Position numbers and translations under genes: made by a program. Source: an uncultured candidate division Zixibacteria bacterium (GTDB lineage: Bacteria; Zixibacteria; MSB-5A5; GN15; FEB-12). From it: a stretch of DNA of 64,000 nucleotides. The stretch lies in NCBI GenBank assembly GCA_963735035.1, contig CAVTJJ010000004.1, positions 1,088,001 to 1,152,000 of the forward strand. The letters run 5' to 3'. The notes beneath the pieces were generated by a model that had not been told where the DNA came from, searched no databases, and saw nothing but the letters and a program-made list of their open reading frames with translations. Of the stretch, positions 27,357 through 61,033 are shown piece after piece (the first letter of the stretch is position 1; each line of letters opens with the position of its first letter).

Positions 27357-27486
27357 TTGTACTCCCGTTTCTGTGGCCGGCCCGGCGCGGCGGGTCCCCG
27401 TCTGCCGCTCCAGAAACTGCTTCCGCGAAGTTGCGCGGTTGCCTATGTTTCCAGTCCTGAATTGTGGAAAGCGGAGTATAACGATC

Positions 27487-29844
27487 ATGTTCAATAGTTC
27501 GACTTTGCGATGGCTGTGGCTCGGATTGGTAATAGGTGTTTCTACTGTTACGGTTCGAGCCGAAACCCGTACCTTCCGGGTGGGTTTCTTCGAAGGCGGC
27601 CCTTATGAGGCACACGCTGAATTCAGAAATGCTTTCCGCGCCCAGATTAAAGCCATGACGCCGCCGGGAGTCCAGATTGTCTTCGAGCCGGATGCTTTCT
27701 ATTCGGCGGAATGGAACCGCGAAAAATCGAAGAGCATGGCTCGCGAAATTGCCGCCTTCAAGAACCTTGATCTCATTGTTGCCACCGGTCCCTGGACTGT
27801 GGAAGACCTTCTGGCCGCCGGGTTTGATAGACCCATCGTGGCCGCGTTTCGTTTCGATCCGGTAGCCGAGGGACTGGTGAACGCCAAGGGAAGACCCATT
27901 ATCGACAACCTGACCGTCCGTGTCCGCCCCAAGAAAGTCGAATCTGATTTGCTCTATCTGGCCAACCTGGTTCATCCGGATACGGTGGGGGTCCTGTATT
28001 TCCCGTCGGGCGATGAATCCGCGAAGGCTCTGGATTCGATGCGGGTCATCGGACGCAGACTCGGTTTCGAAATCGTCACGGCACAGGGATTCGACACCGA
28101 CGGCGCGTACGCCTATTTCAAAGCTTATCGGCAGCTGAGCCGAAGCGCTGACGCAGTCTATTTATTACCGCTTTGGGGATGCGAGGGAGAAAAGATCAAG
28201 AGTTTCTATCAAATGATCGAGCGCGATCGGAAGGCCGCTTTCTCTTCGGAAGGAATGTATCATGTGGAGCGCGGCGCGCTCGCGTCGGGCTCGGCCGAGA
28301 CCGCGATGGTCGAGGCGCATCTCCAGGCCTGGAAAGTCATGCGGATCATTCAGGGAATGGTTCCGGCCGATCTGCCGATTACGCTGGACGACGATCCGGT
28401 CCTGACCCTTAACGACCAGGTGGCACGAAGTGTGCAGGTAAGAGTACCGTCGGGGTTGCACTACGACATGGTGGTTGTCGAAGGTCTGATGCCGGACAGT
28501 GTGGAGCGCGTGACCCTGGTCGATGCGATTTCAGTGGCTGTCAACCAGAACCCCGGCTTTCAGGCGACCTATCAGACCATGGCGGCCGCGGGACAGGCTG
28601 CGAAGGAAGCTCGTTCGTCTTATCTGCCTCAACTCGAGTTGAACGGATCGGCGGCATACTTCAACAACAACGCCGTCAACAATGATCCTCGGTATGACAA
28701 CAATCGTCTGCAAGCTCATCTGAGCCTGCGTCAGGACCTGTTTGCGCTCGATGCCATCAGGGACATCCGCACTGCGGCGCTTCAGCGGGATCAGAGCGGT
28801 GTCGATCAGAAACGCGCCCAGCTCGACCTGGAACTGGCCGTCACACTGGCCTATCTTGATCTGGCAGCCGCTGATCGGGAGCGACTTATCGAGCAGGCCA
28901 ACCGGAGCCAGGCGAACGAGTGTCTGGAGATTGCGCGTGTACGCCTGAGTCTGGGCGAGACCGAGGCCGTCGATGTCTGGCGTGCCGAGCAGGAATTGAT
29001 GTCGTCCCTTCAGGCGTTGCGCGCAGTGGAAAGTCGCCGACAAATCGCCAGAACCCTGTTCAACACTCTGCTTGGACGGCCGCCTGACTATCCCTTTGTC
29101 GCTGACCTGGGGCAATTCTCAGACGAGCGATTTGCTAACGAGCAATCTCTCATTGAGCAGCTCACCGGAAGCTCTGCGAAACGTGAGAGACTCAACCAGC
29201 TCATTGATAGCCTGGCGTCCGCTAATAGTCCCGAGGCGAAAGCATCGGACCTCGACGTTGCCGTACAGAAATCACAACTTTCTCGCACCAACGCCGGTTT
29301 CTGGCCCCGTATCGGTTTCTTCGCCGATTTCGGTGTGACCGATCAGTTGTCCGACAAAGTGGGGTACGATGAAGCCAATCCGAGTTGGACGATCGGTGCC
29401 GAAATCAAGCTGCCGCTCTTTCTCGGTGGGCGACGTCTGCACGAACGGAGCCGGATGCGGCTGCTGATCGATCAAGAGACTTTCAAGAAGGATCAGGTTT
29501 CATTCGAGACGGTCGCAAGAGTCCGAGTGGCGCTTGAGAAGGCTTTGAGCAGCGCCGATGAATTCGCGCCCGCCGCGCGGGCGGATGAGCTCGCCAAACA
29601 GGTTTATCCCGAAATGATTTCGCGTTATTCGAACGGGGAGGAACGAATGACGGATTTGCTTGACGCGATTCGAACTGATCGTGAGGCATCTCTTCGGGCC
29701 GTGACCGCTCAGATCAACTATTATAGAGCGGCGGCAGAGGCTGTACGGGCCGCTGGAATCTCGACCTACGAGTCGGGGAAGAACGCTTTTGACGAAATGA
29801 TACGTGTGTTGGCGTCGATCACACCCCAACCAGCGAAGCAATGA
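27487..29844 (+). CDS. Periplasmic substrate-binding-like domain fused to a TolC-family outer membrane efflux protein
   Basis: Signal peptide; N-terminal ~330 aa resemble an ABC substrate-binding domain (DLIVATG, ADAVYLLP, VERGALAS, LTLNDQVARS); C-terminal OEP repeats (TLVDAISVAVNQNP, ARSSYLPQL, AYLDL, FWPRIG, LPLFLGG). Confidence 0.8.
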   Translation: MFNSSTLRWLWLGLVIGVSTVTVRAETRTFRVGFFEGGPYEAHAEFRNAFRAQIKAMTPPGVQIVFEPDAFYSAEWNREKSKSMAREIAAFKNLDLIVATGPWTVEDLLAAGFDRPIVAAFRFDPVAEGLVNAKGRPIIDNLTVRVRPKKVESDLLYLANLVHPDTVGVLYFPSGDESAKALDSMRVIGRRLGFEIVTAQGFDTDGAYAYFKAYRQLSRSADAVYLLPLWGCEGEKIKSFYQMIERDRKAAFSSEGMYHVERGALASGSAETAMVEAHLQAWKVMRIIQGMVPADLPITLDDDPVLTLNDQVARSVQVRVPSGLHYDMVVVEGLMPDSVERVTLVDAISVAVNQNPGFQATYQTMAAAGQAAKEARSSYLPQLELNGSAAYFNNNAVNNDPRYDNNRLQAHLSLRQDLFALDAIRDIRTAALQRDQSGVDQKRAQLDLELAVTLAYLDLAAADRERLIEQANRSQANECLEIARVRLSLGETEAVDVWRAEQELMSSLQALRAVESRRQIARTLFNTLLGRPPDYPFVADLGQFSDERFANEQSLIEQLTGSSAKRERLNQLIDSLASANSPEAKASDLDVAVQKSQLSRTNAGFWPRIGFFADFGVTDQLSDKVGYDEANPSWTIGAEIKLPLFLGGRRLHERSRMRLLIDQETFKKDQVSFETVARVRVALEKALSSADEFAPAARADELAKQVYPEMISRYSNGEERMTDLLDAIRTDREASLRAVTAQINYYRAAAEAVRAAGISTYESGKNAFDEMIRVLASITPQPAKQ

Positions 29845-51742: not shown

Positions 51743-53008
51743 GTGGTATCCCTGCTTTGTCTGATCGTGATTATCTGGTGCTATGTCACCGCCTACATCG
51801 TCTCGGTGTACGCGTCCGCGATCTATATTGATCCTGAAGAAGTGTCGGAGCTGTTTCCCGGCCTCTCGCATAGACGTCGTCAGGCCTTGATGCGGCTCGT
51901 TGGCGACCCCCGCGCCTTTGTTCAGATAGCCACGATATATCGATACTTCGCCCTGGTGGTAGTGGTGGGGGCGACGATTCTATTGACCGAACAGACTGTA
52001 GGCAAATACTCCGGATATTACCAATGGTTCACTCTGCTGATGGTCTGGGTTCTCTTTGTGCTGGTGGCAGAATTTCTGCCCCGACGAGCTTCACGCGGGC
52101 CGGTCAATCGAAGAATGGTCCGCTGGCTATGGTTGATCAGTCTTCTGCGTCTCTTGCTGCACCCGTTTGTAGCAGTCTATCGCAGAGGGTTGCTCCGGAC
52201 AAATGGCGATCGTCAGGTCACCGAGGACGAGAAGGAAGAGATTGTCGAACGCGCCATCGAGACTCTGGCCGAGCAGGCTGGAATCGGCGAGACCATTGTC
52301 GAAGAAGATGAGAAGGAAATGATCGGCCAGATATTCCGGCTCGACCAGACCACGGTGAGGGAGATAATGTCGCCTCGAATCGATCTGGTTGGGATCGACA
52401 AGACCTCACGTTTTGCCGACATCCAGGACCTGGTGCGTCGGGACGGCCATTCGCGCTATCCGGTCTACGAGGGTTCGATCGACAAGATCATCGGCATTTT
52501 GTACGTCAAGGACCTTTTCAATAATCTGCCCAAACCGGGCGAAGAATTTGTGATTACCGATTATCTGCGGCGACCGTTTTTTGTGCCGGAAACCAAAGTC
52601 ATCGGAGATCTCCTGCGCGAATTTCGCGCGCGCAAGCTTCATGTAGCAGTGGCGGTTGATGACTACGGTGGCGTAGCAGGACTCGTGAGTCTCGAAGATA
52701 TTCTTGAAGAAATCGTCGGTGAGATTCAAGACGAGCACGACAGCGAGTCCGAGGAATTTAGTCGCCAACCCGACGGTAGCCTGGTAGTCGACGCCGGCAT
52801 GCGGCTGGAAAAGCTCCAGGAGGTTCTCGGAACCGAGTTTGAGCAGGACGAGCATGCGACGGTCGGAGGTCTCATCTACGATCTGGTGGGCTCGGTACCT
52901 GAGCCTGACCAGGAAGTCTGGTGGCATCGCATTAGATTCCATATACTTAAGCTCGACGGCCAGAGGATTCTCTTGGTTCGCGTCAGCTACCCATCAAAGC
53001 CTGTCTGA
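51743..53008 (+). CDS. Hemolysin/CorC-family CNNM-CBS-CorC protein
   Basis: TM region, VREIMSPR, HSRYPVY, GILYVKDL, VDDYGGVAGLVSLEDILEEIVGEIQDEHD, TVGGL. Confidence 0.9.
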   Translation: MVSLLCLIVIIWCYVTAYIVSVYASAIYIDPEEVSELFPGLSHRRRQALMRLVGDPRAFVQIATIYRYFALVVVVGATILLTEQTVGKYSGYYQWFTLLMVWVLFVLVAEFLPRRASRGPVNRRMVRWLWLISLLRLLLHPFVAVYRRGLLRTNGDRQVTEDEKEEIVERAIETLAEQAGIGETIVEEDEKEMIGQIFRLDQTTVREIMSPRIDLVGIDKTSRFADIQDLVRRDGHSRYPVYEGSIDKIIGILYVKDLFNNLPKPGEEFVITDYLRRPFFVPETKVIGDLLREFRARKLHVAVAVDDYGGVAGLVSLEDILEEIVGEIQDEHDSESEEFSRQPDGSLVVDAGMRLEKLQEVLGTEFEQDEHATVGGLIYDLVGSVPEPDQEVWWHRIRFHILKLDGQRILLVRVSYPSKPV

Positions 53009-53049
53009 TCTCACCCCCGGCGCAGCTTGTGCGCCTCGTAAAATACTGC

Positions 53050-53078
53050 TTGACACAGTGATAGGGATATCCTATCAT
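53050..53078 (+). promoter_or_regulatory. sigma70 promoter with overlapping palindromic operator-like site
   Basis: TTGACA-17 nt-TATCAT; inverted repeat TGATAGG-GATAT-CCTATCA (53059-53077) covers the spacer and -10. Confidence 0.7.
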
Positions 53079-53193
53079 TCCAATGGCAGAATATGCGTTT
53101 AAATCGACTCGCACTTAGTTCCCGTTTACGTAGTTTTGAAATGTAGGAAGGTATATTCGGGACGGAGTGTGAGTGGATCATAGGAGACGTTGT

Positions 53194-53466
53194 ATGGGCA
53201 GTAAGGTATTGTTAGTTGTGGCTGCAATGTTGGTGCTCCTAATCGTTGGTCTGACGTCCGGTCCCGCTTTCTCCGGGGAACATCCATGGGATTCTGATCG
53301 CACAGGTGGCGGGTCAGGTACCACGACAGGTGTTACTCATGACACTGTAACCGTAGTTGGGACAGACACTATGACTATCAACGGTAGCAGCACACCGACC
53401 ACAGTAGTGGCCCCCGGCTGGACCGTGATTGTTCAGGCCGTGTGGTCTGCAATGATGACCAGGTAG
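53194..53466 (+). CDS. Small secreted protein/pro-peptide (signal peptide, then GEHPWD, then Gly/Thr-rich tail)
   Basis: RBS AGGAG at 53182; MGSKVLLVVAAMLVLLIVGLTSGPAFS|GEHPWDSDRTGGGSG...; has its own promoter. Confidence 0.75.
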   Translation: MGSKVLLVVAAMLVLLIVGLTSGPAFSGEHPWDSDRTGGGSGTTTGVTHDTVTVVGTDTMTINGSSTPTTVVAPGWTVIVQAVWSAMMTR

Positions 53467-53565
53467 CTTCCCGACTATGGCGGGTCAATGTGGAGAGCAA
53501 AAGTCAGTTGCCGGCCCGCGACGAAAGGACGACTGCTAAACAAGAACCTTTAGATCTTAAACGAC

Positions 53566-56505
53566 ATGGGCACAACCTCACTGAACTATGTCTTGGATCA
53601 CCGTCTATTGCTGATTGAGGAGCTTCTGCTCCAGCGGAAATATGACGAGGCCAGGAAGGGCCTGGCTAATCTTCGAGAATCTGATTTCGAAGCTGACGAT
53701 ACACAACACGGTCTGTACCTGTCATTGTCTGCCGATATCGCATTCCTCGACGGTGAATATGAGAATTCTCTTGAACTAGGTTTGAAAGCGGCCCGGCTGC
53801 TGGCCGGTTCGCCGCACCATCGCCAATACGGGCGCACCCTCCATGTATTATCAAAGACTCACTGGGCGGAGGGCAATTTCAAGAAGGCTGAAGAAAAGGC
53901 TTACGACGCTATGGCGTCGTATCGTCGGGCCAGCGACAGCGCCGGTCAGGTCAGTGTTCTGAACGAACTGGCCCACATTGCTTTCATGCGCTCCGATTTT
54001 AAGGCCGCCACCGCTTTTCTGGATGAAGCGGTGACTCTGGCCGAGAATCATTCCGCCAAAGCAGCGATGCTCGCCGGCAACGCCGGTCGTATTCGCACGC
54101 TCCAGGGTGAGTGGGCTCGCGCCGAGCAGGATATCAAATCTTCTCTGCAATATTATACTTCGACCGGCGATGAGACCTCTGCGGCCAGCGCACTGCTCTC
54201 GCTGGGTTATTTGCATCTGCGAAAGAGGGAATTCGTCTTCGCCGACGGGTGTTTTGAGAAAGCCCGTGAAATCATTGAACGCCTCGGTCTGAAGCGTCCG
54301 AGAGTATATCATCGCAAATATGCCGGTGAACTTGCTTTCGAAAAAGGCGATTTCTACCGGGCCAAGGCGCTTCTGAGCGAGGCCTACCGTGAGGCCACGC
54401 AACTTGCGCCGGAGTCGGCTCTGGTAACTCAGGCCGGCAGGCGGCTTGCCGAAGTGGAACTGGCACTGGACAATGTTGATTCGGCATCGAAATTCGCTCA
54501 CAAGACCCTCGAATTGGCTTTGAAGATTGGTGAAACCGCTGAAATTGGGCAGGCACGACGGGTTATCGCCGCCGTGTTCGCAGCGCGCTCGGGTTGGGAT
54601 GAGGCGTTTCGAAGTGGTCGCGAGGCTGTTGAAGTGGCTCGCGCAGCCGGTGACCCGATTGATCTGGCTCGTACCCTGCTGGCGTTGGCCGATATAATGG
54701 TACAAGCCGGCTCGGATGATTATGATCAGGTGAGTGGTCTCTATGACGAGGCGGCCAGGATGTTCCGTCGCTTTGACTTGCCCTTCTGGTTCGCCGAAGC
54801 AGGTTATCAGGCCGGTACGTGGGCCTGTCGCCATGGACGACTTTCCCAGGGATTCAAGCTTCTGAGTCGATCGGAAAAGGTCTTCTCGGAACTCGCTGAA
54901 ACCAGCAAAGTGCGCCGGGTGGGGCAGTACCTGACAGCGATCGCTGATCAGGCCGTGGCTCTTTCCGTGTCCGACGACAACCAGTTCAAATTGTTCGGCA
55001 AATTGATCAATCCGGCCGAACTTACCGATCTGAATTCCGGCGCGATGGATGATCTAGTCGACATATTGCGTCGGCGCACCGGAGCGGACCGCGTAGTGGT
55101 CGTCAGTCCTGACCTTGACGCTACCTCTCTGGTGTCTTCCGAACCCATGACGCCTCAGAAAATGACATTATTCATCGAAGGTTTCCGTCGATTGTTGGGT
55201 CAGGAGATTTCCACAATCAAGCCTACGCTTATGCTGGACTGCCGTCGCGATCCCTACGTAGCGGAGTTGTTTGCGGATTCGCTAGATGTCATCGCCAGCG
55301 TACTGGTGGTACCGTTCAAGATGGGCGACGGCTGTGTCAGCTTCATCTATCTCGATCGTGTCGCTGCTGACAATCGCCTGAATCCTTTCGATCAGGACGC
55401 TCTCAATTTCGCGGTAGGATTTTCGGATGTGGTGGCCTTCAAGTCGGCCGAGTTGCAGAGGCGGAAACTCCTCGAGGACAACCGTCGCCTCAAGGCTCAG
55501 ATAATGATGGAAGCGGCGTTTCCGAACATACTTACGCGAAACCACGAGATGCTTCAGATTCTCGATCAGGTCCGGCAGGTTATTGACTCCAATATCTCGA
55601 TAAGCATCCAGGGACCTACCGGAAGCGGCAAGGATTTGCTGGCCCGGGCGATTCATTACAACTCAAAACGGCGCGACAAACGCTTTATCTCCGTAAACTG
55701 CGCCGCTCTGCCGGAAACTCTTTTGGAATCAGAACTCTTTGGATATCGCAGGGGCGCCTTCACCGGAGCGGATCGTGACAAGCCGGGGCTTTTTGAGGAA
55801 GCCGACGGCGGCACGTTCTTCCTTGACGAAATCGCCGATATGCCTTTGAGTGTCCAGGCCAAGATTCTTCGGGTGTTGGAAGAGAAGGAACTGGTTCGTC
55901 TGGGCGAAAGCACACCGCGCAAGGTGGACGTTCGGATTGTCTCGGCTACCAATAAAGACCTCAAGCTGGAGATGGAAGAACGACGCTTCCGCCAGGACTT
56001 GTATTTCCGTCTGGCGGCGCTGACATACCGTTTGCCGGCGCTATCCGACCGTCGCGAGGATATCCCGTTGCTGGTCGAACATTTTGTTCAGGGGAGTGGC
56101 AAGAGGATTTCTCCTGAGGCCATGCAGTACCTGGTGGCGTATGATTGGCCGGGCAACGTCCGCGAACTGGACAACGAAATCAAGAAACTGATTCTGCTCG
56201 CCGGCTCGTCTGAAGTCATCCCATCCGACATTCTCTCGACCAAGATCGTTGCGGAGAACCGTTCGAAATCGCTCAACAGGCCGGGGAGCGACATTTCGTC
56301 GGGCTATGCGGTAGAGTTTGATGCCCAGCATTCGCTTTACGATTTTCTCGCGCAGCATGAGCGGCAGTTCATAGTCAGGGCTCTCAAGGAGCGCAACGGG
56401 GTCAAGAAACACGCTGCGGCCCTCTTGAATATCCCCGAATCGTCACTCCGACTCAAGATCAAGGAATATAATATCGATCTGGATCGCCTCGACGCGATTA
56501 ACTAA
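53566..56505 (+). CDS. sigma54-dependent transcriptional activator with N-terminal TPR array and GAF-like domain
   Basis: About 450 aa of TPR-like helices, a GAF-like segment, GPTGSGKD, NCAALPETLLESELFG, GAFTGA, FLDEI, RFRQDLYFRL, WPGNVREL, Fis-type HTH. Confidence 0.93.
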   Translation: MGTTSLNYVLDHRLLLIEELLLQRKYDEARKGLANLRESDFEADDTQHGLYLSLSADIAFLDGEYENSLELGLKAARLLAGSPHHRQYGRTLHVLSKTHWAEGNFKKAEEKAYDAMASYRRASDSAGQVSVLNELAHIAFMRSDFKAATAFLDEAVTLAENHSAKAAMLAGNAGRIRTLQGEWARAEQDIKSSLQYYTSTGDETSAASALLSLGYLHLRKREFVFADGCFEKAREIIERLGLKRPRVYHRKYAGELAFEKGDFYRAKALLSEAYREATQLAPESALVTQAGRRLAEVELALDNVDSASKFAHKTLELALKIGETAEIGQARRVIAAVFAARSGWDEAFRSGREAVEVARAAGDPIDLARTLLALADIMVQAGSDDYDQVSGLYDEAARMFRRFDLPFWFAEAGYQAGTWACRHGRLSQGFKLLSRSEKVFSELAETSKVRRVGQYLTAIADQAVALSVSDDNQFKLFGKLINPAELTDLNSGAMDDLVDILRRRTGADRVVVVSPDLDATSLVSSEPMTPQKMTLFIEGFRRLLGQEISTIKPTLMLDCRRDPYVAELFADSLDVIASVLVVPFKMGDGCVSFIYLDRVAADNRLNPFDQDALNFAVGFSDVVAFKSAELQRRKLLEDNRRLKAQIMMEAAFPNILTRNHEMLQILDQVRQVIDSNISISIQGPTGSGKDLLARAIHYNSKRRDKRFISVNCAALPETLLESELFGYRRGAFTGADRDKPGLFEEADGGTFFLDEIADMPLSVQAKILRVLEEKELVRLGESTPRKVDVRIVSATNKDLKLEMEERRFRQDLYFRLAALTYRLPALSDRREDIPLLVEHFVQGSGKRISPEAMQYLVAYDWPGNVRELDNEIKKLILLAGSSEVIPSDILSTKIVAENRSKSLNRPGSDISSGYAVEFDAQHSLYDFLAQHERQFIVRALKERNGVKKHAAALLNIPESSLRLKIKEYNIDLDRLDAIN

Positions 56506-56525
56506 GATCGATTCGAAAATCGATT

Positions 56526-56553
56526 GCGCCCCGTCCGACGGGGCGCTTTTTTT
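56526..56553 (+). terminator. Rho-independent terminator
   Basis: GCGCCCCGT-CCG-ACGGGGCGC-TTTTTTT. Confidence 0.85.
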
Positions 56554-56557
56554 GTCT

Positions 56558-57355
56558 ATGTCAGTTCTCCAGTCGTTCTGTCACTATGCTGCCGACCCCT
56601 GGTTCAATATGGCTTTCGACGAGGCCATGCTGGAGGAAGTCGATCAATGTCCCGAGAAGATTATTATTCGTCTGTATACTTGGGAGCCGGGTGCGATCAC
56701 GATCGGTGTGAACCAGCAGGTAGAACGAGCCGTGCGACTTGAGAATCTCGGTGATACCCCCTTGCTCCGGCGGATCACCGGCGGACGCGCTGTCTACCAC
56801 GATGTTTCCGAACTGACTTACGCCATAGCCCTGAATTTGGAGAATCCCGATCTCGCTGGTTGGCGCCCTTCGGTGAGTAGCGTGTACCTTCGCCTGGCCG
56901 AAGGACTGCGTCTGTTTCTCGACAGGTTAGGTCGACCGACGCAAATTGTGCGACGTGGTGTCGGCGAAAATCCCCAGCGGGCTGATTACATTACGGCACC
57001 ATGTTTTGAATCTGCTGCCCGCTACGAACTGACCTTTGCCGGAGCGAAACTGCTGGCTTCAGCTCAGCGGCAAGCCGGCTCGGCAATCTTGCAGCACGGC
57101 TCAATCAAGCTCCACGGGGCGGTGGTTCATCCGGCTCTGCGGGGAGGTGTTACGATTTCTGAACATGCCCATCAAGCGATTGAGCAAGAACGCCTTGAAG
57201 AGTTTTCCACACAGTTCATCGAGACTTTGGGTGGGTGGTTTGGAGTGGAAATGTTTGATCGCACAACAGCCACACCGTCCCTTCACCGCCTGGGTGCTCG
57301 TCTGGCAATGATTCGTTCTGATCCCTTGGGCAAGCGCATTCCTGTTGAACGCTGA
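56558..57355 (+). CDS. Lipoate-protein ligase A / LipM-like octanoyltransferase
   Basis: NMAFDEAML, RLYTW, RRITGGRAVYH, ELTY, PCF, KLLASAQ, LQHGSI. Confidence 0.88.
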   Translation: MSVLQSFCHYAADPWFNMAFDEAMLEEVDQCPEKIIIRLYTWEPGAITIGVNQQVERAVRLENLGDTPLLRRITGGRAVYHDVSELTYAIALNLENPDLAGWRPSVSSVYLRLAEGLRLFLDRLGRPTQIVRRGVGENPQRADYITAPCFESAARYELTFAGAKLLASAQRQAGSAILQHGSIKLHGAVVHPALRGGVTISEHAHQAIEQERLEEFSTQFIETLGGWFGVEMFDRTTATPSLHRLGARLAMIRSDPLGKRIPVER

Positions 57356-57679: not shown

Positions 57680-60600
57680 ATGGCTGGGATTGGCAAAAGG
57701 CTGCTCGCATGTATTTTGTTGGCAACGATGGCATTGCTGCTCTTGTCAACTTACTCTTTTGCTGGCACCACCGGACAGATCAAAGGACGGGTCGTCGACG
57801 AGTCCGGCAAACCTGTGATCGGAGCTTCGGTGCTGATCGTAGGAACCACTCAGGGCGCCATGACCGATGTGGACGGGAATTTCCAGGTCCTGCGTGTAGA
57901 TCCGGGAACATATGTTCTGCGCATATCGAGCGTGGAATATACCACCGTCGAGGTCACGAATGTCATCGTCAAGATTGATGAGACTTTCGAAGTCAATCAG
58001 AAGATGGCGGCCAAGGGTGCCACCGACATTAACAAGACCATCACGGTGGAAGGCACCCAGGACATTCTGGACAGATTCGTTACTGACAGCCGTGTGGTAA
58101 TAAGCCAGGAAGCGATCAGGCAGCGTCCGGTGCTTACCGTTGACAACTTGCTGGAGCAGGTGGCGGGTGTCCGTACCACGGCCGAAGGCGAAGTGTTCGT
58201 GCGTGGCGGTCGCGCCGGTGAAGTGGCGTACATCGTTGACGGTGTCCCGATCGGCGATCCGCTCGGCAGCGGTCGCGGTCAGATCGGCGCCTCGCTCTCA
58301 CTGGTGTCAGGTTCGATTGCCGAAATTCAGGTCATCAAGGACGGTTTCGATCCTGAATATGGCAATGCCCTTTCAGGTATTGTCAATATTCGCAGTTTCA
58401 CCGGCGACAAGAACAACACGCGAATGGAACTGCAGTGGATCACCGACGACTTCGGCAACCGGAGTCTCAACAAGTATTCTCGCAATTCCGATTACTTTCA
58501 GGCGACTCTTTCCGGTCCGGACCCGCTGATAAGTGACAAGCTTCTGCCGGCTATGGGACTGAACTTCCTCAAGGATCAGGAGTTTACCTACTTCCTCTAT
58601 GCCAGCGTGGACAAGAACGACGGCATCTACAAGATGCAGGATTACAATACTCCGACGACTGTGCGGAAGTGGCCTACTTTCGGCATTCTCGGCTTTGATG
58701 TGCCGGAACGCCTCAAGAACAATTACCACGTCGAGTCCAATTTTAAGTTCCGTCCGCGTCAAAACCTGAAGTTCGTACTTTCATATAAGAAGTACGTTAA
58801 CAAGATAACGCTTTTCTCCCGCAGCGAATGGGCCTATCGATATTCGAATTCTACGGCTCCAATTTACAACCAGGACTGGTATACGCTGTCTCTCGAAACC
58901 ACGCATTCGGTTTCGCGAAACATGAACTATGAGCTGATCTTCTCAATCTACAACGAAAAGAACAGCGAAAAACCTTCCGACCCCAATCATCCGGGCACGA
59001 CCCTTGATCCGTACGATATGTATACCGATGCCGGTTGGGAAACCTTTCAGGATAACAACGGCAACGGTGTTTACGATCCCCCGGAACCGATCATCAATCT
59101 GTTTGGTGACACCGCCAACTACGGCACCGGTTTCAACGGTCCGGCCTATACTTTCGGAGAGAACAACAGTTACACGAACCAGCAGGGCGGAACGCCCATC
59201 CGGAGCAATTTCCGTTTCAATAATAACGGTGTCATAGACAACCTTGAAGGTGAGCCGTTTATCGACCTCAACGGAAACGGTGTCTGGGATCGGGGCGACT
59301 ATTTGAACGATCGCAACGGCAATGGCATTCTCGACAGCGACCGTCGTCCGACCGTCCAAACGCCCAGTGCCGAACCGTTCGTTGACGGTGACTCGATCAT
59401 CGGCGAACCGTTTGTCGATCTAAACTACAATGGTGTGTACGAACCGCGCATAGATGTGTTCTTTTTCGACGCTGATCCTGCCAGAAATCAGGATCTAAAT
59501 TACAACGGCATATACGACGGCCCCAATTCTCCCTGGACCCCGGGCGTGCCTTTCCTGGATCGTGACGGCGACGGATTGTACGACTACCCTAACAATGTCT
59601 ACGATCCGGGTGAGCCGTTCACCGACGTTAACGGCAATGGCAAGTATGACTACGGCGGCTCGAGTACTTTTCTGGAGCCGGGGACTTATGCTTCCGGTTT
59701 TGTCTGGTCGGAGCAGACCGTTCGGCGAATTCGCGGCGAAGTAAAACTGACGCGCCAGATGAATCGCCACGAGGTCAAGGCCGGTTTCTTCTTGCAACGA
59801 GAGCAGTTGTATCAGGGAGAGATTACCAACCCATATTTGCAGTACAATGGTCGTCCGGACTATAGTAACCCCTACTCGACTCGCGGCCTTTTCCGCGATT
59901 TCTATCGGTACGATCCGATCTCCGGAGCCGTCTATGCTCGTGATAAGATCGAATACGGTTCGATGGTGGCGTCGCTCGGTCTGCGCTGGGATTTCTTCCT
60001 GCAGGATACGAAGGATCTGGCGCGGGCGCTCAAGAGTGATGACCGCGGCGGTAAGATTCTGGGTGATCGGCAGCAGTTTGCTCCAAGAATTGGATTCTCT
60101 TATCCGATTTCCGACAAGGCCAAAGTGTACTTCAACTATGGTCACTTCTTCCAGTTGGCCGGTCTATACACGATGTACAAGCGCAATACTATCAGTGCCG
60201 ACCAGAACAACGTTCTGGGTAATCCCAACTTGAATTATCAGAAGACGATTCAGTATTCGTTCGGCATTAAGTACGCTATGAATGAGAGCTATACTATTGA
60301 CGCCCAGGGGTACTTCAAGGACGAGTTTGACAAGATCAACGCCGGTAACATTTACGAAGGCGAGCTGGTGCGGCAGCAGTATCTCAACAAGGACTATGGA
60401 CGCAGCCGCGGATTTGAAGTCACGCTGGAGCGCTCCGGCGGCGGCCTGGTCAACGGCAACATCAGTTACACCTACGCTTTCGCGTTCGGCAAGGATTCGA
60501 AGTCGGCCGAGCAGTTCAACCGGGACCTGGAGTCGCGTGAGGCTTTGACCGAGTCTCCCATGAACGAGGACATCCGCCACACCGTCAAGGCTGCGGTTAC

Positions 60601-61033
60601 TATCGACATGCCGTCAACGGTTAAGCCGAGACTCTTTGGTGTCCCCATTCTAAACGGCTGGAGTCTGGCTATTGAGGGTCTGGTTGAGAGTGGCGCGCCA
60701 TATACTCCGTCCAGCACTTTCCCCGGTCTGGCTGGTTCGACTACCTCACCGCAAAAGAATTCGATGCGTTTCCCGATGACCGCGGCGTTCGATATCCGTT
60801 TTACGAAAGACTTCGGACTGGCGGGGCTCGACTGGAAAGGCATCCTCTGGGTTGAGAACCTGTTCAATCGGCGCAACGTGGTGGCCCTGGCGGGCGATCC
60901 GAGTTCCACCGGACGAGCTGACACCAATCAGAACATTAACGGAGTCGTGTATGGCGGCTCAGAGTTCGACAAGAATCCCTATAACTGGGGTTATGGTCGC
61001 CAGATCCGGCTCGGTATTCAAGTGAGCATATAG
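57680..61033 (+). CDS. TonB-dependent receptor with CarboxypepD_reg-like N-domain and a large Ca-binding repeat insert
   Basis: AGTTGQIKGRV.D..G.P.IGASV, plug VRGGRAGEVAYIVDG, GFDPEYGNALSGIVN, barrel (GLRWD, PRIGFSYPI, YFNYGHFFQ, GNPNL, ENLFN, RQIRLG); insert with repeated EPFxDxNxNGxxD. Confidence 0.9.
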   Translation: MAGIGKRLLACILLATMALLLLSTYSFAGTTGQIKGRVVDESGKPVIGASVLIVGTTQGAMTDVDGNFQVLRVDPGTYVLRISSVEYTTVEVTNVIVKIDETFEVNQKMAAKGATDINKTITVEGTQDILDRFVTDSRVVISQEAIRQRPVLTVDNLLEQVAGVRTTAEGEVFVRGGRAGEVAYIVDGVPIGDPLGSGRGQIGASLSLVSGSIAEIQVIKDGFDPEYGNALSGIVNIRSFTGDKNNTRMELQWITDDFGNRSLNKYSRNSDYFQATLSGPDPLISDKLLPAMGLNFLKDQEFTYFLYASVDKNDGIYKMQDYNTPTTVRKWPTFGILGFDVPERLKNNYHVESNFKFRPRQNLKFVLSYKKYVNKITLFSRSEWAYRYSNSTAPIYNQDWYTLSLETTHSVSRNMNYELIFSIYNEKNSEKPSDPNHPGTTLDPYDMYTDAGWETFQDNNGNGVYDPPEPIINLFGDTANYGTGFNGPAYTFGENNSYTNQQGGTPIRSNFRFNNNGVIDNLEGEPFIDLNGNGVWDRGDYLNDRNGNGILDSDRRPTVQTPSAEPFVDGDSIIGEPFVDLNYNGVYEPRIDVFFFDADPARNQDLNYNGIYDGPNSPWTPGVPFLDRDGDGLYDYPNNVYDPGEPFTDVNGNGKYDYGGSSTFLEPGTYASGFVWSEQTVRRIRGEVKLTRQMNRHEVKAGFFLQREQLYQGEITNPYLQYNGRPDYSNPYSTRGLFRDFYRYDPISGAVYARDKIEYGSMVASLGLRWDFFLQDTKDLARALKSDDRGGKILGDRQQFAPRIGFSYPISDKAKVYFNYGHFFQLAGLYTMYKRNTISADQNNVLGNPNLNYQKTIQYSFGIKYAMNESYTIDAQGYFKDEFDKINAGNIYEGELVRQQYLNKDYGRSRGFEVTLERSGGGLVNGNISYTYAFAFGKDSKSAEQFNRDLESREALTESPMNEDIRHTVKAAVTIDMPSTVKPRLFGVPILNGWSLAIEGLVESGAPYTPSSTFPGLAGSTTSPQKNSMRFPMTAAFDIRFTKDFGLAGLDWKGILWVENLFNRRNVVALAGDPSSTGRADTNQNINGVVYGGSEFDKNPYNWGYGRQIRLGIQVSI

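Follow-up and report, generated by a model that had tools for sequence, protein, structure and literature searches.

How might a peptide made outside the inner membrane of a diderm cell inform a receptor that stays in the cytoplasm? The question is raised by a two-gene cassette in a 64,000-nucleotide (nt) stretch of DNA from an uncultured candidate division Zixibacteria bacterium (GenBank assembly GCA_963735035.1, contig CAVTJJ010000004.1, positions 1,088,001 to 1,152,000 of the forward strand), which we call the window. The first gene encodes a small protein with a predicted signal peptide followed by a short Trp-acidic motif, and the second encodes a sigma-54 activator that begins with a long array of tetratricopeptide repeats (TPR). 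An earlier, sequence-only reading of this DNA had proposed that the pair is a peptide signalling module resembling the RRNPP systems. To our knowledge, peptide signals read by cytoplasmic repeat-domain receptors are textbook material only for Gram-positive bacteria, and the sigma-54 activators that we know of respond to phosphorylation, to small molecules or to partner proteins and not to peptides that have a gene of their own. We give a probability of about 0.5 to the reading that, as a whole, the small protein and the activator are a cognate ligand-receptor switch operated by a returned fragment that carries the motif.

The two genes are kept together across the order. At 45 of 46 loci, the activator gene is preceded by a small open reading frame (ORF) that encodes a signal peptide and an x-[HND]-P-W-acidic motif, a recurrence of gene pair and motif that makes the proposed two-gene unit real beyond chance. 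At every positive locus the ORF is on the same strand as the activator gene, and the Trp-acidic motif comes just after an N-terminal hydrophobic segment. The small ORF with the motif was found at 28 of 29 loci in the window's family (activator identity 56-75%; the one miss has just 52 nt of upstream contig) and at 16 of 16 loci of three other families in the order (activator identity 40-50%). It was also found at all 10 of 10 orthologue-length matches (947-993 codons; best-segment identity 34-40%) from ten further families. Conservation of a small ORF beside activator homologues, which the sequence-only reading had put forward for checking, is therefore borne out both in the order and in the ten other families. 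Of the 285 genomes of the phylum, 257 have a match (E<=1e-10) to the sensor region of the activator (amino acids [aa] 1-645), among them every one of the 107 in the window's family. The flanking genes of the window, one CorC-like and one lipoate-ligase-like, are kept within the family, with the lipoate-ligase-like gene seen at 25 of 45 other loci and the CorC gene at 18 of 45, counts limited by short flanks. In other families the flanking genes differ, and the small gene and the activator gene remain paired. Several of the database records with a cassette (L087, L088, L091 and others) are titled Ignavibacteriales, Calditrichota or Acidoferrum, and their activators are 45-50% identical to those in records titled Zixibacteria.

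The small protein has the features expected of an exported precursor. Its N-terminus reads MGSKVLLVVAAMLVLLIVGLTSGPAFS, and this is followed by the motif GEHPWDSD (aa 28-35), a Gly/Thr-rich acidic stretch and a short aromatic/hydrophobic C-terminal segment. The protein opens with a basic residue and a 20-residue hydrophobic stretch, and the signal peptide spans aa 1-27, with predicted cleavage between AFS and GE, so that the motif sits at the predicted cleavage site. Signal peptidase follows a -3/-1 rule, and the PAFS-GE junction is of that type; most family members have Ser at -1 and a small or aliphatic residue at -3. Hydropathy of the N-terminal 15 residues is at least 1.6 in 45 of 45 small proteins, and acidic residues prevail in the part that follows the motif (median net charge -8 among the 45 sequences). 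Membrane proteins tend to follow the positive-inside rule; because basic residues precede the hydrophobic segment and acidic residues follow it, the motif is placed outside the inner membrane. We predict from these features that the small protein is exported via a Sec-type signal peptide and cleaved.

Apart from the motif, the small proteins are poorly conserved. Mean column identity among the 45 sequences is 19%; the Trp is invariant and the Pro is present in at least 90%, so the Pro-Trp-acidic core is kept, and the HPW-like motif holds up as a conserved element. A weak D-[TS]-h-x-h element and the aromatic segment also recur beyond the motif. No Pfam or NCBIfam family covers the small protein, and the 17 database relatives found by profile search are all unnamed or called 'hypothetical'. 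Two other ideas about this protein were rejected. In a two-span hairpin, rejected for the window's orthologue group, a cytoplasmic basic tail would touch the TPR array, and a second membrane-grade segment is present in only 2 of the 45 proteins, one of which is a regular-expression artefact. An amino-terminal copper- and nickel-binding (ATCUN-type) metal site, suggested by Gly-Glu-His at the mature N-terminus, fails because the His is often Asn, Asp, Gln, Leu or Tyr and because the motif is not N-terminal in other families.

The partner of the small protein is a regular bacterial enhancer-binding protein (bEBP) of the GAF class with an added TPR array. Its domains are a TPR superhelix (aa 12-468), a GAF domain (494-624), a linker helix (610-644), an AAA+ domain (656-819), a lid (828-901) and a helix-turn-helix (HTH) domain of the HTH_8 type (928-968). 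Pfam finds TPR_12 in six stretches, TPR_MalT, Sigma54_activat (PF00158; 2.5e-67), AAA_lid_14 and HTH_8 (2.6e-8), and no receiver domain. GAFTGA and the Walker A sequence GPTGSGKD are intact in the translation, and no N-terminal hydrophobic segment is visible there. The GAF match is marginal in the whole activator (19.3 bits vs a cut-off of 22.4) and rises to 23.3 bits, above the cut-off, when the domain is taken alone; a GAF match is also obtained for 33 of 45 orthologues. For an AlphaFold model of aa 485-645 (pLDDT 89), the best Foldseek matches are GAF domains (DosS/DosT, CodY, PDE), and a model of aa 1-645 (pLDDT 89.8) consists of 24 uninterrupted helices over 12-468, a GAF fold and a long helix, 610-644, pointing toward the AAA+ domain. 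Thus, for both genes the composition described earlier is present as placed: a signal peptide ending in AFS, GEHPWD and a Gly/Thr tail in the first, and in the second a TPR array, a GAF-like domain and a GAFTGA AAA+/HTH module that lacks a receiver domain.

Structure and profile searches match the sensor region to generic TPR arrays. Foldseek returns long peptide-binding superhelices (LGN/Pins, TONSOKU, OGT and subunits of the APC), and no RRNPP chain is among its top 50. A profile search against solved structures matches the sensor region to LGN, kinesin light chains (3zfw_A, E 1.9e-4) and designed TPRs, with RapF appearing only at E 2.6e-4 among generic TPR matches. The best solved match of the activator is NifA (3.1e-67), and its NCBIfam scores are far under every equivalog cut-off. 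The genome has rpoN (Sigma54_DBD 3.2e-58 at G000:C4:989986-990459, where G000 is the window's genome) and 18 strong Sigma54_activat matches.

Co-folding places the motif, and nothing else of the small protein, in the groove of the TPR array. The sensor region and the mature small protein (aa 28-90), each with an alignment of 45 sequences, were folded together and compared with three controls. The median ipSAE was 0.61 (runs 0.61, 0.39 and 0.67) vs 0.00 for the best control, and the runs share at least 33% of their contacts. The confident interface on the partner consists of residues 28-35 only, that is, GEHPWDSD, and on the activator it lies on the concave face of the repeats. Interface positions are enriched in residues conserved at 90% or more (11 of 36 vs 74 of 460 in the TPR array, p=0.018), and the groove includes the invariant residues G127, N172, S284, Q289, E323 and E326. 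The sequence-only reading had suggested a co-fold of GEHPWDSD with the TPR domain; in the co-fold described here the motif lies in the groove and the controls are passed, a model result that supports binding.

Covariation at one predicted contact is the strongest evidence that motif and groove meet. Position 179 of the TPR array is predicted to touch residue 30 of the small protein, the third residue of the motif. Among the first 45 pairs, His at this motif position occurs mostly with Leu at 179, Asn occurs without Leu in seven of seven, and Asp occurs with Arg in two of two. The Asp-Arg rule was set on those two cases, and 106 further loci then gave 89 pairs, 63 of them new. In the held-out 63 pairs, Asp occurs with Arg in 17 of 17, and Arg occurs with a residue other than Asp in 0 of 46. 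Over all 108 pairs the counts are 19 of 19 for Asp with Arg, 0 of 89 for Arg with another residue, 52 of 71 for His with Leu and 0 of 13 for Asn with Leu. Two rows need a qualification: the motif letter of L021 is a regular-expression artefact and is truly His, and that of L061 was assigned by eye.

The paired states appear to have arisen more than once. On a FastTree phylogeny of the TPR columns, with column 179 left out, the state at motif residue 3 and the state at position 179 each change seven times, and the independent pairs, five on supported branches and seven on all branches, all go in the same direction. Asp/Arg pairs are spread over the window's family, two other families of the order, one distant family and TPR-only paralogues, and single genomes (G219 and G199) carry both Asp/Arg and His/Leu cassettes. 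We favor contact between motif and groove because a charge-complementary pair that arose repeatedly at a predicted contact is otherwise hard to explain. Judging from the models together with this pattern, the motif very probably binds the TPR groove of the activator.

The same design recurs in shorter paralogues. Activators of about 750-825 aa that have the TPR array and no GAF domain are preceded by a motif-bearing ORF at 7 of 13 judgeable loci. At one further paralogue locus (L062, G280:C36), with a 787-aa activator, the motif reads HPVGDD for HPWGDD, the sole variant seen that lacks the Trp. The window's own genome has such a cassette at G000:C4:314488-317124 (L008 3489-6124, minus strand), in which a 120-aa exported protein carries GDHPWGDD and its stop codon overlaps the start of a 757-aa TPR-AAA+-HTH activator without GAF. 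These TPR-only cassettes share with the window's orthologue group the small-protein design, the motif and the TPR-AAA+-HTH activator, whereas the window's group has the extra GAF domain, a different, near-invariant HTH and its own CGCA-N5-TGCG sites. The two also differ in that TPR-only cassettes have an adjacent sigma-54 promoter and the window's group does not. In the same-genome paralogue this promoter, TGGCACAGCCCTTGCT, is at C4:314268 (-), about 220 nt behind the activator gene. By eye, the ORF that follows it resembles a microcompartment-shell (BMC) protein.

The cassette is a compact transcription unit (Table 1), set between a CorC/CBS-type gene that ends at 53008 and the lipoate-ligase-like gene that starts at 56552. 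The near-consensus promoter and the strong terminator recognized earlier are both where they had been placed. CTTGACA and TAnnnT of the promoter are kept across 28 family loci in alignment, a leader of about 110 nt separates the promoter from the ribosome-binding site and start codon, and the 99-nt gap between the two genes contains no terminator-like site on the + strand.

Table 1. Positions of the features discussed; coordinates are those of the window unless a genome coordinate is given.
Feature	Position	Strand	Basis or remark
Operator-like palindrome 1, GGCGCA-N5-TGCGCC	53019-53035 (core CGCA-N5-TGCG 53021-53033)	+	starts 29 nt upstream of -35
Sigma-70-type promoter TTGACA-17-TATCAT	53050-53078	+	11/12 consensus matches; conserved TAAnATAnTGC ahead of it
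Spacer palindrome TGATAGG-N5-CCTATCA	53059-53077	+	lineage-specific
Operator-like site 2, GGCA-N5-TGCG	53085-53097	+	just after -10, over expected transcription start
Ribosome-binding site AGGAG	53182-53186	+	7 nt ahead of ATG; GGAGG conserved before small ORF in family alignment
Gene for small protein (predicted exported), 90 aa	53194-53466	+	open reading frame, translation
Sigma-54 enhancer-binding protein gene, 979 aa	53566-56505	+	open reading frame, Pfam
Predicted motif-binding groove, TPR aa 97-329	53854-54552	+	co-fold interface, concave face of repeats ~3-8
Intrinsic terminator	56526-56553	+	9-bp stem, 8 GC pairs (56526-56546), then T7; closes two-gene unit
Candidate distant output locus	G000:C4:1240935-1241430 (L161, L163)		operator-like site, sigma-54 + tandem sigma-70-type promoter, non-coding stretch

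Two operator-like sites flank the promoter and are conserved with it. In an alignment of the 260 nt upstream of the small ORF at 28 family loci, the conserved blocks are, in order, CGCA-N5-TGCG, TAAnATAnTGCTTGACA, TAnnnT after a further 17 nt, [AG]GCA-N5-TGCG immediately behind the -10 hexamer, and GGAGG; the leader between the last two blocks is not conserved. Palindrome 1 is at the same offset in 41 of 45 loci, in 39 of 45 site 2 follows the start of TTGAC at a constant distance of 35 nt, and the two are 64-65 nt apart across the order. The earlier reading had assigned the operator to the palindrome in the promoter spacer. That palindrome is present as described and is perfect (7/7 pairs) in the window alone; the 43 loci compared keep 2.9 of its 7 pairs on average, with an excess over chance due to one T/A pair, so it is not a conserved operator, and the CGCA-N5-TGCG sites are conserved instead. 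Site 2 was also considered as a sigma-54 -24/-12 promoter and rejected, the spacing being 2 nt too short and the GG not conserved. Four loci of one family (L046-L049, f2) have a third site of the CGCA-N5-TGCG type, 14 nt upstream of site 1.

The activator might control its own operon through these sites. The HTH stretch IPESTLRLKIKQY (GVKKHAA..LNIPESTLRLKIKQY) is almost invariant in orthologues and different in the paralogue, and autoregulation is suggested because a near-invariant HTH fits an invariant site. From this correspondence, we suspect that the activator's own HTH probably binds the two CGCA-N5-TGCG sites and regulates the operon; another regulator could do so. The exact motif does not define a regulon, since CGCA-N5-TGCG occurs 56 times in the genome, about the level expected by chance. 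The 10-base form of the operator occurs twice, the second copy being inside a coding region. In a genome scan with a weight matrix built from 80 sites, the third-best match, GACGCAAATTGTGCGAC, is at 56938-56954 of the window, in the lipoate-ligase-like gene about 430 nt past the activator stop, and may be due to chance. Another weight-matrix match, the operator-like site ATCGCACTATATGCGCC, is at G000:C6:415542, about 110 nt upstream of one OPT transporter gene, and no promoter-like partner was seen nearby.

One of the four best weight-matrix matches in the genome, at G000:C4:1240935, leads to a candidate sigma-54 output. This site is in a 620-nt intergenic region about 89 kb past the end of the window (about 100 kb from the cassette), and a candidate sigma-54 promoter, TTGGCGTGATTCTTGCA, is 297 nt downstream of it, at G000:C4:1241232. 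Behind this promoter come TTGACT-N17-TATATT and some 170 nt of non-coding sequence with a T-run at its end; a gene that encodes an exported protein lies next. In the two other genomes of the genus the TTGGCGTGATTCTTGCA-type promoter is kept perfectly, with one CGCA-N5-TGCG site each, at -335 and -170. The promoter pattern, with at most two mismatches, occurs in 83 of 160 genomes of the order, spread over many genera, far above a reversed control. We retrieved 33 of these loci, dropped 10 that failed a stricter regular expression and counted 23. A strict site is present within 600 nt upstream of the promoter in 8 of the 23, and a one-base variant in 7 more. The 13,800 nt upstream of the promoter contain 8 strict sites and the remaining 53,757 nt of these loci contain 0. 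Of the 20 loci outside the genus, 5 carry a strict site, for which a binomial test gives p of about 1e-6, with the qualification that kin are not independent.

Downstream of the distant promoter, the tandem sigma-54/sigma-70 promoters and a TTACTAC...TTACTGC element are conserved. RNAalifold found no consensus RNA structure in the non-coding stretch (17 sequences), and Rfam gave nothing above chance there. From these sequence comparisons, we regard the distant sigma-54 promoter as a candidate output of the window's activator. The strongest sigma-54 match in the window itself, TGGCACGAAGTGTGCA at 28421, was rejected: it is inside a long ORF (27373-29844). This ORF joins, in one frame, an ABC_sub_bind domain (aa 109-360) to an outer-membrane efflux OEP domain (aa 384-568).

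How, then, could the small protein inform the activator? We postulate the following sequence of events. The operon would be transcribed from its sigma-70 promoter, with the activator autoregulating through the flanking CGCA-N5-TGCG sites. The small protein would leave the cytoplasm by its Sec-type signal peptide and be cut so that GEHPWDSD sits at or near the new N-terminus. A fragment bearing the motif would then reach the cytoplasm again, possibly through transporters of the OPT family; the genome encodes four OPT and one POT peptide transporters. In the cytoplasm the fragment would dock as an extended peptide in the concave groove of TPR repeats ~3-8. The GAF domain and the long helix behind it would relay groove occupancy to the AAA+ ring and so switch sigma-54-dependent transcription from at least the distant promoter. 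In this scheme we infer export and cleavage, release of the fragment, its re-entry, the sign of the effect on ATPase activity and the protein that binds the DNA sites. That the form bound is the exported and returned fragment is a claim to which we give odds a little short of even.

Several observations count against the returned-fragment switch. Its weak point is topology, since the inner membrane is predicted to separate the ligand on the outside from its cytoplasmic receptor. A search for an Opp-type binding protein (PF00496) found none in this 96.9% complete genome, and the cassette has no linked processing protease or dedicated exporter. Across the phylum and the paralogues the motif is near-identical, in contrast to diversifying pheromones. 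In other families 1-20 residues lie between the predicted cleavage site and the motif, and a free N-terminus at a fixed distance therefore cannot be required. In the co-fold, the partner has a pLDDT of about 36, so that its fold is uncertain, and one run reached only 0.39; the ipSAE mark used, which 116 of 157 solved complexes attain, as do 2 of 215 mismatched pairs, is a rough calibration because our own alignments went into the co-fold. Position 179 was picked from 16 tabulated interface positions and not ranked among all 460, and a sign test on the five independent pairs gives p=0.0625. On the output side, no sigma-54 promoter adjoins the cassette in any of the 46 loci, and the link to the distant promoter is one short motif, strict in just 8 of the 23 loci.

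The most serious rival, which we consider unlikely on balance, does away with re-import. The activator would hold the unexported precursor in the cytoplasm, and Sec export would remove it, so that the pair reports export capacity or times its own expression. Export of FlgM, which frees sigma-28, is an analogy. Such a mechanism solves the topology without an importer and agrees with the lack of an Opp-type binding protein. It also suits two co-transcribed genes that are 99 nt apart with no terminator between them, and the overlapping stop and start codons of the paralogue, which imply that the partners are made together. The motif comes directly after the signal peptide and is kept across paralogues and the phylum, as would be expected of an intracellular handle and not of a pheromone, and co-fold and covariation fit equally well. 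What such control leaves unexplained is the conserved signal-peptidase-type site (a small residue at -3, Ser at -1) before the motif, as well as the conserved D-T-h-x-h element and aromatic segment in the exported part. Moreover, the co-fold was made on the mature form only, and a signal peptide beside the motif may clash with the groove.

An improbable alternative is that the small protein acts only in the envelope, as a periplasmic or surface factor or a metal-binding peptide, and is merely co-expressed, without physical contact, with an activator that senses something else through its TPR and GAF domains. In favor of this, the mature protein is acidic, has a low-complexity sequence and carries His, Glu and Asp close to its N-terminus, and a route back into the cytoplasm is only proposed. 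GAF domains usually bind small molecules, and the top structural matches of this one include haem- and nucleotide-binding GAFs. However, the Asp-Arg covariation, with its 19 of 19 and 0 of 89 counts and several independent changes, is difficult to reconcile with proteins that never touch, the motif alone forms the interface in a co-fold that passes its controls, and paralogous activators carry a small gene of their own (at the 7 of 13 judgeable TPR-only loci). Lastly, it is hardly credible that the small ORF is no gene and stays open by chance within a long 5' leader of the activator gene: the ORF is short, of low complexity and without a Pfam or NCBIfam family, but its frame, signal peptide, motif and GGAGG are kept in 45 of 46 loci while the leader nucleotides are not, and gene callers predict its homologues in public data.

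A bolder reading, which we regard as doubtful, is that a Zixibacteria cell has several insulated peptide channels. Each exported Trp-acidic pro-protein would be cut to a short peptide that leaves the cell or the periplasm, comes back and is read by its own cytoplasmic TPR-sigma-54 activator. Motif residue 3 and TPR position 179 would set the channel, and conserved non-coding loci behind sigma-54 promoters would be the output. If so, RRNPP-like peptide communication would for the first time be known outside monoderm bacteria and coupled to sigma-54.

The sequence-only reading had suggested that the cassette could control a nearby TonB-receptor/PorV operon. We found nothing that ties the two together: there is no sigma-54 site at that operon, and it was not seen as a neighbour at other loci, where flanks are too short to judge. 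The region includes a TonB-dependent receptor with a CarboxypepD_reg domain (57680-61033) and, next to it, a 344-aa protein, with the region reaching to 62080. The 344-aa protein scores 28.8 bits for FadL/TodX (cut-off 29.7) and 27.1 for PorV (cut-off 27), and because both scores are borderline the 'PorV' label is weak.

Why might this cassette matter? The gene pair is retained throughout an uncultured diderm phylum, whose genomes often have several copies of it, and one residue pair appears to set specificity. If our reading is correct, it would add a new class of input to sigma-54 regulation and provide a compact, re-programmable peptide-receptor module. The idea can be tested with a synthetic octapeptide and one purified domain, and the organism need not be grown.

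The closest functional parallels are the RRNPP(A) pairs of Bacillota, their phages and plasmids, among them Rap-Phr, NprR-NprX, PlcR-PapR, PrgX and AimR-AimP, as described in PMC10075063. The likenesses are an adjacent small gene for a signal-peptide pro-peptide with a cytoplasmic TPR receptor, a short linear peptide in a TPR groove (here by computation only, from co-fold and covariation), and several paralogous pairs per genome with a specificity-determining contact. There are also several differences. The window's cassette is in a diderm phylum (Zixibacteria), not in Bacillota or their mobile elements, and its receptor is not a recognisable homologue of Rap, NprR, PlcR, PrgX or AimR. Its output is sigma-54 activation by a GAF-AAA+ protein that ends in a Fis-type HTH_8 domain, where RRNPP(A) receptors act through an N-terminal HTH or as Rap-type phosphatases or anti-activators. 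Its motif lies near the N-terminus of the mature part and not near the C-terminus, and is conserved phylum-wide. RRNPP(A) peptides are re-imported by Opp, whereas the window's genome is without PF00496 and return is only proposed here.

From the side of the activator, the comparison is with GAF-containing bEBPs of the NifA, NorR and FhlA type. The order GAF-AAA+(GAFTGA)-HTH_8 is the same, and rpoN is in the genome. The window's activator differs from these in having a TPR superhelix of about 470 residues before the GAF domain and a dedicated gene for a small exported partner upstream.

A W-acidic motif is a Trp flanked by acidic residues. In eukaryotes, the TPR domain of kinesin light chain binds cargo motifs of this kind (PMC6214655). 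The likeness is a TPR groove that reads a short motif of one Trp flanked by Asp/Glu. The kinesin system differs in being eukaryotic and in serving cargo recruitment, not transcription, and the resemblance is at the level of generic TPR repeats. Full-text searches, with subscription journals mostly outside their reach, turned up no account of a sigma-54 activator that pairs a TPR sensor with an exported peptide partner. What this analysis adds is the GAF-bearing orthologue group, the residue-level covariation, the conserved operator pair and the candidate distant output.

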